DNA from: Planctomycetota bacterium
Lineage (GTDB): Bacteria > Planctomycetota > UBA1135 > UBA2386
Reading direction: 5' to 3'
Length of the DNA stretch: 64,000 bases
Assembly (NCBI GenBank): GCA_041178545.1
Contig: JBEGVB010000056.1
Span: 369 to 64,368, forward strand
Made by a program: the position numbers and the translations under genes. The notes under the pieces were generated by a model that saw nothing but the letters and a program-made list of their open reading frames with translations, ran no database searches and was not told the DNA's origin. Positions 36,522-45,920 of this stretch are shown piece after piece (the first letter of the stretch is position 1; each line of letters begins with the position of its first letter).

Positions 36522-37079
36522 TCAGCGGGTGCCGCCCACCGGGAGCCCGGTCTGGACCTCCTTGGTGGACTCCCGGCGCTCGAAGAGCTTGCGCAGGTCC
36601 TGGTAGCCGTACTCGCTGCGGTCGTTGTACCCCTCCAGCTGGAGGTCGAGGTCGATCCGGCGGGCCCCCACGAGGGTGATGCGCCGCTGCTCGTTGCCAC
36701 CGCCGCGGGCCTCATAGACTGCAAGCTGCTTCTTCTCGGTGTCGATGAGGTAGAGCACCGAGGTCCCCACCCCGTAGCTGCCGGTCACCGCCACGAGGCC
36801 GTTGCCGGAAGCTGCCTGGCCCGACTCCTCGCTGTAGACCACGGGCTCGTCATCCGTGGTCCCGGAGTTGGTGCCGGTGCCGCCCGTGGGCGGGTTGACG
36901 CCGCCGCGACCTTGGGCGGCCAGTTCGGGGACGTCGACCGAGAGGGACGAGCGGGAACCTTCCCCGCGGGTCCACTGCCCGACGAGATAGGCGCCGAGCA
37001 GCAGGGGGACGAGAAGGGCGGGGTGGGACCAGCGGGAGCGCATGGGTGGCAGTGTGCCCCTCCCGGGCTCCGCCCTCAA
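36522..37079 (-). CDS. Small membrane-anchored protein, unknown function
   Basis: TTG 37079 overlaps the histidine kinase stop (TTGA). The alternative ATG 37043 gives MRSRWSHPALLVPLLLGAYLV. The C-terminal domain (..LYLIDTEKKQLAVYEARGG..) has no motif I can name. Confidence 0.55.
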   Translation of the reverse strand: MRAEPGRGTLPPMRSRWSHPALLVPLLLGAYLVGQWTRGEGSRSSLSVDVPELAAQGRGGVNPPTGGTGTNSGTTDDEPVVYSEESGQAASGNGLVAVTGSYGVGTSVLYLIDTEKKQLAVYEARGGGNEQRRITLVGARRIDLDLQLEGYNDRSEYGYQDLRKLFERRESTKEVQTGLPVGGTR

Positions 37080-38563
37080 GGTCCAGGGGCGGACTGCGCC
37101 TCGGCAGCCGCCGGCAGCTCCAGTTCGACCCGGAAGCCCTTCCCCGGCTCCGAGTCCAGCCGCATCTCGCCGCCGTGGTTCCGCACGATGGAGTAGCTCA
37201 TGAACATGCCGAGCCCGCTCGCGTCAGGGCGGTCCTTGCGGCTGAAGAACGGGTCCGTCACGCGCCCGAGGTCCTCTCGCGGCATCCCCGGGCCGTCGTC
37301 CACCACCTCGACGTGCACCTTGCCGCCCTCCGACCACGTGCGGGTACGGATCCTCCCTCCCGCACCCTTCTGCTGCAGGGCGTCGAGCGAGTTGAGGTAG
37401 AGGTTGAGCAGCACCTGTTGGATCTCGTGGGCATCGCCGCGCACCGTCGGCACACCTGCACCGTGCACGCAGTCGAAGGCCACGCCCTGCTGTGCGATGC
37501 GGTGCTCGACCAGGGACCGCGCCGCATCCACGGCGTCCGCGACGCGGAACGGGCGGGCGTCGACCTGCCGCGGCGAGAAGTCGAGCACCTTGCGGGAGGT
37601 GCGCGCCACGCGTTCGAGCCCCTGTTGCACCAGCTGCAGGTAGCTGCGCTGGCGGTCGTCGAGCCCAGGCGACTGCAGCAGGCGGTGGACCGCGTTGATC
37701 ATCCCACCGATGGGGTTGTTGATCTCGTGCGCGATGCCGGCAGCCAGCGTTCCGATGGCCGCGAGACGAGAGCTCACGACGAGCGCCTGTTCCTGCCGAC
37801 GCGTCTGCTCCACCGCGCGGGCGACTGCGTCGCGCAGCTCGTCCGTGTTGCCCTGCACCCTTGCAGCCATGGCGTTGAACGCACGCGCGAGCACCTCGAG
37901 CTCACGTACTCCCAGTTGCTCGGACACGCGCTCGCCGAAGTTCCCGCTGCCGAGGGCTGCAGCCGCACGGCCGACCTCTTGCAGCGGTCGCACCACCCGC
38001 CGCACGACGAGCCAGTGCGCCAGCAGCCCGAACAGGGACGTCGAGGCGAGGATGGTGAGGAGCGCGGCACCCACGGGTGCCGTGGTCTCGGGGGGCGGGC
38101 CGAAGGGCTGGAACCACAGCGCGCCCACCACCTCCGCATCCTTGCGGATGGCCTTGCAGTAGCCGCCGGCGGCAGGGACCAGACCCTCGGTGGCGCGCGC
38201 GGTCTCCATCCCGGCGAGGATCTCGGCGCGCGGGAACCGGTCCGGGTCGCGGTGCACGGCACCGCGCGGGTTCAGGTAGACGAACCCCTCGAACGGCGGG
38301 CGCCCCGAGGTGACGACGACGTCCTGGAACAGCTCGCGGATGAGACCTGCCTCCACCAGGTTGCGGGCCTGTCGCTCGTCCCCCACGAACCGTTCCGCCG
38401 TGTAGACACGGCGGAGGAACGTGACCAGCTGCGCGTCGAGGAACGCCTCCTGCTGGCGCGCGACCCAAGCCTGTTGCGCGTAGTGCGCTGCCAGCTGCAC
38501 GGCGCCAACCACCGCGAGGTTGAGCAGCAGCACCACCAGCAGGATGCGCCAGGCGAGCGACAC
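37076..38563 (-). CDS. Membrane sensor histidine kinase (HAMP-HisKA-HATPase), no receiver domain
   Basis: GTG start 2 nt after the upstream stop. Two TM segments. H-box IAHEINNPIGG, N-box LLNLYLNSLDA, G1 DDGPGM, G2 GLGMFMS. Confidence 0.85.
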   Translation of the reverse strand: MSLAWRILLVVLLLNLAVVGAVQLAAHYAQQAWVARQQEAFLDAQLVTFLRRVYTAERFVGDERQARNLVEAGLIRELFQDVVVTSGRPPFEGFVYLNPRGAVHRDPDRFPRAEILAGMETARATEGLVPAAGGYCKAIRKDAEVVGALWFQPFGPPPETTAPVGAALLTILASTSLFGLLAHWLVVRRVVRPLQEVGRAAAALGSGNFGERVSEQLGVRELEVLARAFNAMAARVQGNTDELRDAVARAVEQTRRQEQALVVSSRLAAIGTLAAGIAHEINNPIGGMINAVHRLLQSPGLDDRQRSYLQLVQQGLERVARTSRKVLDFSPRQVDARPFRVADAVDAARSLVEHRIAQQGVAFDCVHGAGVPTVRGDAHEIQQVLLNLYLNSLDALQQKGAGGRIRTRTWSEGGKVHVEVVDDGPGMPREDLGRVTDPFFSRKDRPDASGLGMFMSYSIVRNHGGEMRLDSEPGKGFRVELELPAAAEAQSAPGP

Positions 38564-44700: not shown

Positions 44701-45920
44701 CCCCCGCGTGCCAGTTCCACCTGGAGGCGGTCGGCAGGGAAGCCGCCGTACGCGAAGGAGACCGTCGCCAAGTCCTCGCTGCGCAGGATGCGGGGAACGG
44801 AATCGCGCACCACCGGGCCCGGCACCACCACGAGCGGACTGCCAGGAGTCGACTCGAGGAACGGGGCCGCGCCGTCGGCCCACGCCAGCGCGGCAGCGAC
44901 GAGTGCCGCGCCCAGCGTCGCAAGGCTCCAGCCGCGCAGGGCCGAGTGGTCCGCACGCACCAGCGCCTCGAGTTGGCGGAGCACGAGTTCTGCCGACACC
45001 GGTCGGCGTGAAGGGTCCAACGAGAGGCACTGCTGTACCAACCGGTGGAGGCTGCGGGGCACGCCGGGAACGGCGGGCAGCGGCTCGATGCGACCCTGTG
45101 CGGTTGCCGCGGCAGCCTCCCTCGGGTCGGTGGCGCGCACTGGCAGCTCGCCGGTGAGCATGCAGTGTGCGAGGACGCCGAGCCCGTAGAGGTCCGCACG
45201 GGCGTCGGCAGGCGATCCGCTGAGGTGCTCCGGCGCACTGAAGACCGGGTTCGCGAACGGCGCACCCTCGTGCTCGCGGTCACCGGACCTGCCCGAGAGG
45301 GTTGCCTTGGCGATGCCGAAGTCGAGCACCTTCACGAACGGCTTGCCGTCGCGCACCGACACCATCACGTTGCGCAGCGAGAGGTCACGGTGCACGAGTC
45401 CCGCGCCGTGGATCGCGACGAGTGCCCTGCACACCTGCACGAGGATCGCAACTGCAACGGCCGGCTGCAGGCCCTTTCCGCCACGCAACCACAGGTCGAG
45501 CGTCTCACCCGCCGCAAGCTCCATCGCGAGGTACACCGTCCCGTCCTCGGTCTCGCCCACGTCGAGGATGCGTGCACAGTGCTCGTCCACCACGCGGCCC
45601 GCCCGGCGCGCCTCGGCGACGAGCGCACGCCGCAGCTCCGGGCGCATGCCGAACCTCGGGTGCAGCAGCTTGACGGCAACGGGCACCAGCGAGACCTCGT
45701 GCACGGCCCGGAACACGGTGCCCATGCCCCCGCGCCCCAGCACGCCCTGGATCCGGTACTTGCCGTCCAGCAGCGCGCCGAGCAATGGGTTCGCGGCGTC
45801 TGCCTCCCCGCGACGCAACGGGAAGTGCACTGCGTCCATCGACAACAGCGCAGCGCCACAGTGCCCGCACTGGTCGTGCTCCGTCGCGGAGATGCCCTCG
45901 CAGCTCAGGCAGATCTTCAA
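41706..45920 (-). CDS. Giant Hanks-type protein kinase: N-terminal Zn ribbon, kinase, TM, large extracytoplasmic region, C-terminal FGE/SUMF1-like domain
   Basis: TTG start. CLSCEG..x10..CGHCG ribbon. Kinase motifs GRGGMG, VAVK, HRDLSLRN, DFG and SAPE. TM WSLATLGAALVAAALAWA. C-terminal FGE-like blocks (..FRLPLGCELDLAAFG.., ..GLDFGVREWT..). Confidence 0.85.
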   Translation of the reverse strand: MKICLSCEGISATEHDQCGHCGAALLSMDAVHFPLRRGEADAANPLLGALLDGKYRIQGVLGRGGMGTVFRAVHEVSLVPVAVKLLHPRFGMRPELRRALVAEARRAGRVVDEHCARILDVGETEDGTVYLAMELAAGETLDLWLRGGKGLQPAVAVAILVQVCRALVAIHGAGLVHRDLSLRNVMVSVRDGKPFVKVLDFGIAKATLSGRSGDREHEGAPFANPVFSAPEHLSGSPADARADLYGLGVLAHCMLTGELPVRATDPREAAAATAQGRIEPLPAVPGVPRSLHRLVQQCLSLDPSRRPVSAELVLRQLEALVRADHSALRGWSLATLGAALVAAALAWADGAAPFLESTPGSPLVVVPGPVVRDSVPRILRSEDLATVSFAYGGFPADRLQVELARGGAGLSQVDLTPFVDRDHARLVLSMGQQEWRAAVAGIAGESVAGPVDVRFLVPGIAALGSARLRIDDQPPEAAIACEASGASATALTAATRVVVRVQDAVGVSRCTLQLRGDGVEFDLELPVEPSRTVSGTDLLAAIPGPQPGGPVSLAVHAVDHAGNETITQPLHFETCDLAVPVVEEWVGMQGEQDVWHLGGRAEFRLRTSATEPGLGFLARDPLGGTRPVEAVAAAPGSNWWNCRMSGPVDRSAVAFPVGRWSVELVDPAGNRSTAEFSPVFRDRDLAPRWSVVGDDPAVVSGEDIVLSPEGCTLDLQVLPSHTVAAVALRTRDGASVEPGAGVDLLQSGRGSGRMRVRGLQEGNWQLLVTVQPAAGVGGGQVEFRRGLVVLPRTLVVRVPSPSGRFLPALLQDGTFVLQDGRLRPGPGWTCDGGMGMHMRGELLSGGADLVPQALVPVAEVFPGTATFPLVPGRNLVAARLRDVLGREVRVLRGNELAPTAVVGGVRVHLLADFVNADQPPELVGGELLVEHGEPARLRLRVRPALLGNELDSAVLALGQGEFRPVAAESVVDGMELVFQLPRDVWVRAATVDPQVQGVATLADASPAEFARGIRASVRGVYTSPAGRSELLLPVRTVRSTLRALPLGDLVPALPEPLAALRFVPVLAPEGPWPDPLPADAPARGSFHAGPPTDVRNLEDVFVLDAEVTQAQYLALLRAWEARAQPVGAEGARLVHATDPLGESRTTAAAMVPSAFAGDLDAFIAEAASRPDRAVHGVDFHQAWCWTRMLGALVGRTPGWFRLPLGCELDLAAFGNMPPGVARQGAAAHGRSVAASAFRSGAPADDARAAALASGDVVDGPWPAPVHGLDFGVREWTCDLPVPAGPEHLLLQEWVGDARLHLRRVEEHAAGELSSTMLPARVAALGVVRGTAFGEPRLMVDPATGLRAVDVDGRLAPTVPGVTRAEHLRRDGRDVVPGALDRRLDAVGFRVVGGAAFVRHARSLR

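Follow-up and report, generated by a model that had tools for sequence, protein, structure and literature searches.

A Planctomycete Locus Best Described as a Hanks Kinase/PP2C Cassette Beside a Displaced pilC–Histidine Kinase Pair

The core cluster of the type IVa pilus of Myxococcus xanthus is pilB-pilT-pilC, and in the PilS-PilR system, which controls the expression of type IV pilin, a sensor histidine kinase with six transmembrane segments is encoded beside a pilus biogenesis gene and next to its response regulator. PknB/PstP combines a transmembrane Hanks-type kinase that carries an extracytoplasmic sensor region with a membrane-anchored PP2C phosphatase, and the PpkA-PppA-Fha1-TagQRST pathway of the Pseudomonas H1 type VI secretion system (H1-T6SS) places a kinase, a PP2C phosphatase, and an envelope lipoprotein beside a gene for a trans-envelope machine. 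We compared these systems with a chain of six consecutive minus-strand genes (positions 36522–45920) in a 64-kb stretch of chromosomal DNA, hereafter the window, from an uncultured Planctomycetota metagenome-assembled genome (MAG). The chain encodes a giant Hanks-type kinase, a lipoprotein, a PP2C phosphatase, a platform protein of the PilC/GspF family (GspF below), a HAMP histidine kinase, and a small bitopic protein. An earlier note on this DNA had taken the chain for a single new system; the genes, their coupling, and their synteny within the lineage stand, but the idea of one integrated unit finds only partial support: the chain falls into three separable units, and the kinase–lipoprotein–PP2C trio is absent from 34 of 34 informative loci outside the lineage. 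Probably, three units, each conserved on its own (unit A, the trio; unit B, GspF and the histidine kinase; and unit C, which begins with the small protein), make up the chain as a mosaic that lineage-specific rearrangement has put in one orientation, and by descent its pilC gene is no orphan. We describe the locus as a Hanks kinase/PP2C cassette with a novel lipoprotein, lying beside a displaced pilC–sensor kinase pair, and not as a new integrated system.

Gene order around GspF within and outside the lineage

Taking a single genome for each species, we used an alignment of GspF to collect 80 Planctomycetota loci, with at most 10 kb of flank on either side, and searched them by tblastn with all window proteins. 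Counts refer to subsets of these loci, with denominators as given; those for PilT and for the trio outside the lineage use the 34 loci with at least 9 kb of upstream flank. Group 1, the window's own lineage, comprises 23 loci whose GspF is 57–89% identical to that of the window, and group 2, outside the lineage, comprises 57 loci with 43–53% identity. Within group 1, the histidine kinase gene directly follows GspF in 21/21 loci, and PP2C adjoins GspF upstream in 16/19, so that synteny, whose absence from related genomes the earlier note had named as a refutation, is conserved; an ATPase gene occupies that position in 0/19. In group 2, the gene directly upstream of GspF encodes a PilB-like ATPase in 46/49 loci, and PilT is present in 29/34. 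PP2C is never adjacent there (0/49), and neither the kinase, the lipoprotein, nor PP2C occurs within 9–10 kb (0/34). The histidine kinase directly follows GspF in 37 of 52 group 2 loci, and a small protein–HTH–OmpA–FGE–ksgA block lies no more than 10 kb downstream in 33 of 46, usually behind two CNNM/CorC genes.

One group 2 locus, L040, reads by Pfam and NCBIfam as DUF1573, PilB-like (T2SSE+MshEN), PilT, PilB-like (T2SSE+MshEN), GspF/PilC, histidine kinase, and CNNM genes, and its 349-aa ATPase scores 437 bits, above the cut-off of 319 for the PilT/PilU family. A long syntenic block of this kind is common in L030–L075 (e.g., L040:3784–19600); it runs from DUF1573 through a PilB-like gene with MshEN, PilT, a second PilB-like gene with MshEN, PilC, and a HAMP histidine kinase to two CNNM/CorC genes, a small transmembrane/beta protein, HTH, OmpA, FGE, and ksgA. 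A literature search returned nothing specific on a planctomycete pilB-pilT-pilC–histidine kinase locus. The pilC–histidine kinase pairing spans much of Planctomycetota and, as far as could be told, is apparently undescribed.

Because the downstream context is shared, and because ATPase genes lie upstream in 46/49 group 2 loci, we regard the window's GspF as the positional orthologue of pilC in a pilB-pilT-pilB-pilC–histidine kinase locus. The label “orphan” given to GspF in the earlier note therefore does not hold, since the positional orthologue follows PilB-like, PilT, and PilB-like ATPase genes in nearly all loci outside the lineage. A lineage-specific rearrangement appears to have unlinked the ATPase genes from pilC, and the kinase trio now stands in their place.

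The gene models were confirmed. In DNA of ~70% G+C, the six-gene minus-strand model is backed by frame analysis of G+C content at third codon positions (GC3) and by independent public gene calls on near-identical contigs, with products of 1404, 352, 294, 383, 495, and 173 aa; domain searches with Pfam and NCBIfam agree with the four domain identities named previously. GspF itself (383 aa, 38566–39717, minus strand), the first gene of unit B, matches T2SSF (PF00482, E 7e-59) in two stretches and has three transmembrane segments, the features of the T2SSF platform family. Its scores fall below the equivalog cut-offs, at 330 bits versus 424 for TIGR02120 (GspF) and 272–297 versus 700 for the PilC models. 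It is a T2SSF family member that by score is assignable neither to GspF of the type II secretion system (T2SS) nor to PilC of the type IV pilus. GspF is the best-conserved protein of the chain, with 57–73% identity across the lineage, 43–53% to other Planctomycetota, and at least 150 invariant alignment columns among 27 sequences; relative to the ATPase-linked relatives, the invariant N-terminus MPKKLQRK and the cytoplasmic regions are kept.

This conservation bears on two alternative readings of the gene. The first holds that the GspF-like gene is a decaying paralogue left beside unrelated genes, the outcome that the earlier note had named as its own refutation. That no ATPase, pilin, or secretin gene lies nearby would fit such a relic, but the open reading frame (ORF) is full length with both T2SSF domains and all three transmembrane segments, no protein of the chain is better conserved, and conservation extends to its start, to the motif upstream of it (below), and to its coupling with the histidine kinase. 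We regard decay as effectively refuted and assign it almost no probability. The second alternative holds that GspF is a true orphan, PilB and PilT having been lost and the PilC-like protein co-opted, away from filament assembly, as a membrane scaffold or signaling partner of the histidine kinase, the Hanks kinase, or both. In its favor, tblastn found no T2SSE ATPase gene anywhere in the 64 kb of the window, nor in the 23 lineage loci up to the ends of their flanks, 10 kb from GspF; moreover, GspF is strongly constrained and its pairing with the histidine kinase is invariable in the lineage. However, absence within 10 kb says nothing of the rest of genomes of up to ~6.6 Mb, and the whole of GspF, cytoplasmic regions included, is conserved against relatives that are linked to ATPases. 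We know of no platform protein of the GspF/PilC family that works without an ATPase, and we consider a true orphan improbable.

The histidine kinase (495 aa, 37076–38563, minus strand), the second gene of unit B, carries HAMP, HisKA, and HATPase_c domains above the Pfam cut-offs and starts 2 nt past the GspF stop; two transmembrane segments flank a periplasmic region of ~140 aa. Its nearest NCBIfam models, all far below cut-off, are AtoS and ZraS, which pair with NtrC-class regulators, as PilS does. It thus resembles PilS in its nearest relatives and in being a sensor kinase encoded beside a pilus biogenesis gene, and differs from it in having two transmembrane segments, a periplasmic domain, and HAMP in place of six transmembrane segments, and in having no adjacent response regulator. 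The likeness of unit B to pilB-pilT-pilC lies in the two T2SSF domains, the three transmembrane segments, and the position of the group 2 orthologue after PilB-like and PilT genes. Unit B differs in lacking a linked ATPase within the window's lineage, in the arrangement of its group 2 relatives, where pilT stands between two PilB-like genes that carry MshEN, and in the coupling of a HAMP histidine kinase to pilC. Pilin, PilMNOPQ, and prepilin peptidase genes were not seen in the regions examined. The statement that the window contains no secretion ATPase, pseudopilin, secretin, FHA protein, or response regulator was borne out: besides the tblastn result for T2SSE, a six-frame regular-expression search of the window found no prepilin leader of the GFTLIE type, and among the ~45 window ORFs scanned with Pfam, several of which had no match at all, there was no N_methyl match, no FHA or secretin domain, and no receiver domain that could partner the histidine kinase.

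Spacing between the genes separates unit A from unit B. The junction strings described previously are all present, namely GTGA at 41706–41709, GTGA at 40651–40654, a 52-nt gap between PP2C and GspF, and TGAACGTG at 38561–38568. Tight coupling was confirmed inside the trio and inside the GspF–histidine kinase pair, where orthologues keep the spacing: kinase to lipoprotein is −4 nt in 11/16 loci, lipoprotein to PP2C is −4 to +2 nt in 16/18, and GspF to histidine kinase is −1 to +6 nt in 20/25. Nearly all group 1 junctions inside the trio are overlaps or are separated by at most 2 nt. The 4-nt overlaps exceed chance in the sense that orthologues retain them. The PP2C-to-GspF spacing varies, from 7 to 124 nt in most loci, with two kilobase-sized insertions in addition. 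No locus shows a break within kinase–lipoprotein–PP2C, and none of 21 lineage loci shows one within GspF–histidine kinase. The PP2C–GspF junction, in contrast, is broken in L018 by a 7.2-kb insert that holds an opposite-strand ORF call, an MMPL gene, and a FAD monooxygenase gene, and in L022 by a 3.2-kb insert, and in L032 lgt lies directly upstream of GspF with no kinase trio within 10 kb. This one junction was thus disrupted three times independently.

The gap between PP2C and GspF contains a bipartite motif, TTGCGG-N17-GACGAT (39726–39754, minus strand), which came to light when the 120 nt before the GspF start, itself invariant, were aligned across orthologues. Its consensus in the lineage is TTGC(C)N-N17-(R/C)ACGAT (TTGC-N19-RACGAT) with invariant spacing, and in the window 8 nt separate the end of its −10-like hexamer from the ATG of GspF. 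The window version has no other match in the window, where 0.34 would be expected by chance. A match lies within 130 nt upstream of GspF in 19/23 lineage loci (among L007–L032) whatever the upstream gene, including L032 and L018, against a background in the same loci of 0.002 per 130 nt (11 other matches in 664 kb, both strands); upstream of GspF outside the lineage the count is 0/30. The motif fits sigma-70 geometry, its −10 element is unlike the TAnnnT-like boxes upstream of the kinase and HTH genes, and a sigma-70 consensus scan of the region gave no match. Its presence suggests a separate transcription start for pilC and the histidine kinase, and we read it as a putative promoter or operator dedicated to this pair; at its position it would give a leaderless or near-leaderless GspF mRNA.

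The kinase–lipoprotein–PP2C cassette

Unit A opens with the Hanks-type kinase (1404 aa, 41706–45920, minus strand; Pkinase PF00069, E 5e-35). Its kinase domain, residues 55–313, retains the catalytic Lys (VAVK81), the HRD Asp (HRDLSLRN177), and DFG (DFG200). The sequence reads as a CxxC...CxxC zinc-ribbon-like motif at the N-terminus and an Ala-rich transmembrane segment at residues ~335–352; beyond these is an ectodomain of ~1040 aa for which there was no Pfam match and no assignable domain. Orthologues are 34–46% identical in at least 15 loci. Their catalytic loop has the form HRDL(S/T)xRN (L007–L028), and it reads HRDLSLRN in the window (~45300–45400, residues ~175–185). The sister sub-lineage has HCDLSPRN. 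Compared with the canonical HRDLKPxN, the Lys is replaced and an Arg stands two residues later. An Arg at that distance from the missing catalytic-loop Lys is a tyrosine kinase–like arrangement, and the altered loop may confer an unusual substrate specificity, possibly for Tyr. Two further candidates were rejected. An FGE-sulfatase domain at the kinase C-terminus is unproven (BLASTP E 0.008, an hhalign probability of 4% to the window's FGE family, and no PDB sequence match), and matches to the defence-system kinases MADS6 and BREX PglW reflect generic kinase-domain similarity far below cut-offs.

The second gene of unit A (352 aa, 40651–41709, minus strand) overlaps the kinase stop by 4 nt (GTGA) and encodes a lipoprotein without an NCBIfam match or, even at E 5, a Pfam match. 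The family is small: a word-index search returned 87 homologues, and among 1.84 billion there are 159 representatives at 50% identity. All source names shown read “hypothetical protein” from Planctomycetes. The lipobox Cys23 is invariant in the alignment. The AlphaFold2 (AF2) model has a predicted local distance difference test score (pLDDT) of 84 and a predicted TM-score (pTM) of 0.81, and is least confident at residues ~141–166. That same hydrophobic stretch, NGRWPxTxxTWxLxGxGxxIPDxxFE, is the most conserved part of the protein and mostly invariant. The best Foldseek matches in the PDB were the CsgG pre-pore (4uv2, E 5e-5), FlgT (3w1e, E 1.6e-4), and HpaA; because the TM-scores were only 0.25–0.37, we treat this likeness as a lead and not as an assignment. 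The membrane hairpins of the CsgG pre-pore are unstructured, and the low-confidence stretch of the lipoprotein model may be comparable, again only as a lead.

The distribution of the lipoprotein follows the kinase. According to the earlier note, its homologues might co-occur with GspF, PP2C, and kinase genes; those of the lineage do. Two paralogous or remote relatives each adjoin the end of a different giant kinase gene, in a neighborhood that contains neither PP2C nor GspF. One such pair is in the same MAG as L024, and Pfam found nothing in the remote lipoproteins. The pairs span L087:4163–9128, where the kinase is of 1272 aa with two kinase domains, and L089:2186–7083, where the kinase has a weak FGE-sulfatase match. 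By gene order, the lipoprotein thus appears to track giant kinases rather than GspF.

PP2C (294 aa, 39770–40654, minus strand), the third gene of unit A, overlaps the lipoprotein stop by 4 nt (GTGA) and matches PP2C_2 (PF13672, E 7e-14) and PF00481 (E 3e-6), with 121 bits against a cut-off of 230 for the Stp1/IreP family model. Its translation contains RSANED (RxxNED), DGMGG, GDCR, TDG, and DN, that is, all of the motifs, and ends in a transmembrane anchor at residues 265–283. Together, kinase, lipoprotein, and PP2C form what we predict to be a translationally coupled cassette restricted to one lineage.

The cassette resembles PknB/PstP in pairing a membrane-anchored PP2C with a Hanks kinase that spans the membrane and carries its sensor region outside the cytoplasm, both with their catalytic motifs. 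Unlike PknB/PstP, it has a novel lipoprotein gene between kinase and PP2C, an ectodomain that cannot be assigned, and HRDLSLRN in place of HRDLKPxN. With PpkA-PppA-Fha1-TagQRST it shares a kinase, a PP2C, and an envelope lipoprotein beside a trans-envelope machine gene; unlike that pathway, the trio is not tied to the machine gene outside one lineage. The earlier note had drawn both analogies. Neither survives as a filing of the locus, because the defining partners are absent: the scanned ORFs held no PASTA domain (NF033483, 177 bits versus 450, in the kinase domain only), no FHA, no SEDS protein (FtsW/RodA), and no penicillin-binding protein (PbpA), and by Pfam there was no FHA domain, T6SS gene, or kinase vWA domain in the chain or in the scanned window ORFs.

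Whether the cassette acts on its neighbors is a separate matter. A reading close to that of the earlier note is that, after the rearrangement, the trio came to regulate the pilC–histidine kinase pair, phosphorylating PilC, the histidine kinase, or the unlinked ATPases on Thr/Ser, and that all five genes form one operon for signaling and control of the machine. Several observations lend it weight, and those on linkage and gene order also weigh against a mosaic of independent units. PP2C keeps its place beside GspF in 16 of 19 lineage loci, mostly with gaps below 130 nt, despite protein divergence to 34–50% identity, and the five genes from kinase to histidine kinase stay joined while both flanks differ between two sub-lineages, which is the pattern expected from selection for linkage. 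The genes are co-directional, no terminator-like site was found between the six genes in the scanned region, and the catalytic motifs are intact. For regulation by the trio there is also a precedent in MasK of Myxococcus, a Hanks-type kinase reported to interact with type IV pilus proteins (PMC3546991). Three further points weaken the mosaic reading: the motif before GspF is a sequence pattern, and it may serve as an operator or as an internal promoter alongside read-through; no PilB or PilT gene was seen in the lineage loci, whose flanks reach 10 kb; and the orthology of GspF rests on conserved position and not on phylogeny.

These points must be set against others. It is exactly the PP2C–GspF junction that was disrupted independently in L018, L022, and L032; the promoter-like motif precedes GspF whatever lies upstream; the kinase–lipoprotein pair occurs elsewhere without GspF; and the trio is absent near pilC in all of the non-lineage loci with enough flank. 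Synteny alone is weak evidence, because the lineage also keeps the order of genes with housekeeping roles and no evident relation to one another, such as ksgA, dnaG, rpoD, and that for the helicase. The three disruptions, the dedicated motif, and the kinase–lipoprotein pairs that lack GspF speak for linkage between pilC and the cassette being dispensable, and we hold regulation of the pair by the trio to be possible but doubtful.

The small protein, the flanking genes, and the rest of the window

The small bitopic protein (173 aa, 36522–37043, minus strand), the first gene of unit C, has no family match in Pfam or NCBIfam. It consists of an N-terminal transmembrane helix, a disordered Pro/Gly-rich linker, and a nearly invariant five-strand beta domain with the sequence NGFVAVTGSYGVGTSVLYLxDT...LAVYEARGG...LVGARRIDLDLQLEGYNDRSEY, and it has 636 homologues. 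The AF2 model has a pLDDT of 62 overall and ~80 in the beta domain; no fold could be assigned, as there was no PDB match (best E 0.37). The TTGA string said to overlap the end of the histidine kinase gene is present at 37076–37079, but it is probably not the start of the small protein: the ATG at 37043, which leaves a 32-nt gap after the histidine kinase, is favored. That start agrees with the public call of 173 aa and with the homologues, which begin MK..W and align from there.

The small protein had been counted as a member of the chain, a placement that the comparison does not support. Downstream of it on the same strand lie genes for a membrane-anchored HTH_17-like protein, an OmpA-family lipoprotein, and an FGE-sulfatase protein, followed by ksgA, dnaG, rpoD, a CT398-like gene, and selB. 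In 13 group 1 loci, a convergent GGDEF gene follows the histidine kinase; in L015, where we checked, rpsB-tsf-pyrH-frr comes next. In two such genomes the block of small protein, HTH, OmpA, FGE, ksgA, dnaG, rpoD, and selB is found elsewhere, behind miaE, so that the small protein travels with HTH-OmpA-FGE-ksgA when parted from GspF–histidine kinase. Judged by this gene order, it appears to belong with the downstream housekeeping block rather than with the sensor kinase of unit B.

Throughout the phylum, the gene that immediately follows the small protein is the HTH gene, in the window 35926–36417 (minus strand; 163 aa), which has a weak HTH_17/excisionase-type HTH match (E 1e-3) and a C-terminal transmembrane helix (residues 124–142); its product would be a membrane-anchored DNA-binding protein. 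A terminator-like GC hairpin with a T-rich tail (36472–36487, minus strand) follows ~35 nt past the small-protein stop. Only its position is suggestive, since the scanned region holds 4 such sites where 3.9 are expected. Within its overlap is a TAGCTT box, which in the alignment corresponds to the −10-like boxes of TAGGAT/TAGACT type found 5′ of the HTH gene in relatives. In L092 and L093, the small protein is preceded by a protein of ~1200 aa, which does not match the 1185-aa protein upstream of the group 2 ATPase genes.

The GGDEF protein occurs in L009–L016, L018, L019, L026, L028, and L032 (e.g., L015:12650–13642 and L032:12721–14109), is 62–92% identical between loci, and has no homologue in the window. 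Its GGDEF motif is intact, and in its receiver-like domain an Asn replaces the phospho-acceptor Asp (DVVLLNP); because the receiver is degenerate, no canonical phosphorelay can be claimed. MshEN is a receptor domain for cyclic di-GMP (c-di-GMP). Its presence on the ATPases of the group 2 relatives suggests a c-di-GMP input, and the GGDEF neighbor of the histidine kinase points the same way.

Upstream of the chain, 114 nt before the kinase start, lies the gene for a 315-aa bitopic protein (46035–46982, minus strand). Its description as FtsQ-like has as its basis a transmembrane segment at residues 17–35 and a partial, sub-threshold match to POTRA_1 (E 0.03, 15 bits versus a cut-off of 23). This gene and the next (47014–47271, minus strand, 85 aa) are conserved before the kinase in just one sub-lineage, the one that retains the whole chain. 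Other genes fill this place in the second sub-lineage; those of L015 are tatC and a 410-aa ORF without assignment. Farther upstream in the window are a divergent DEAD/DSHCT helicase gene and then genes for NAD kinase and dxs.

Elsewhere, the window carries genes of housekeeping and envelope functions. Among its products are three large Sortilin/BNR-repeat paralogues, encoded at 4520–7228 (minus strand), 10527–13502 (plus strand), and 13507–16380 (plus strand), one of which carries PDZ and FlgD-Ig-like domains, and a DUF2961 protein gene (8269–10323) adjoins them. selB (26199–28118, minus strand) is followed by a long ORF region (24160–26196) with coding-like GC3 and no Pfam match; neither selA nor a SECIS-type RNA was found in the window, and Rfam gave no match anywhere in it.

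A model of the locus and its implications

The mosaic that we favor suggests the following division of labor. Unit B, as the comparison of loci shows, is the remnant, still in place, of a phylum-wide type IVa pilus–like core locus consisting of pilB-like, pilT, pilB-like, pilC, and histidine kinase genes. From the role of its family, PilC would serve as the inner-membrane platform of a pilus machine whose ATPases are encoded elsewhere in the genome, and the histidine kinase would act as a machine-associated envelope sensor signaling to an unlinked regulator. Unit A, judging from domain order and topology, may be a self-contained Ser/Thr phosphorylation switch, in which the ~1000 periplasmic residues of the kinase together with the lipoprotein would receive a signal, the kinase would phosphorylate cytoplasmic targets, and PP2C would reset them. 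The small protein of unit C would belong to the next block, with HTH, OmpA, FGE, ksgA, dnaG, and rpoD.

A bolder proposal, which we think unlikely, is that the motor genes at pilC were replaced by the kinase–lipoprotein–PP2C cassette, which gates PilC and the histidine kinase through Ser/Thr (or Tyr) phosphorylation; in its extreme form, the ATPases have been lost and the platform has become a signaling scaffold. If such gating were true, it would amount to a new control, or a reuse, of a type IV filament platform protein. The organisms of this lineage are uncultured, so testing will be slow.

For annotation, the mosaic reading means that an apparently orphan GspF in these genomes would be the pilC of a rearranged pilus locus and not part of a new secretion-signaling system. 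Two further elements have, to all appearances, not been described before. One is a lineage-restricted family of lipoproteins, in every case translationally coupled to giant Hanks kinases; the other is a conserved, putatively regulatory motif before the pilC–histidine kinase pair. Should PilC or the histidine kinase prove to be a target of the cassette, Ser/Thr signaling would be linked to the control of pili in a phylum about whose surface biology little is understood.

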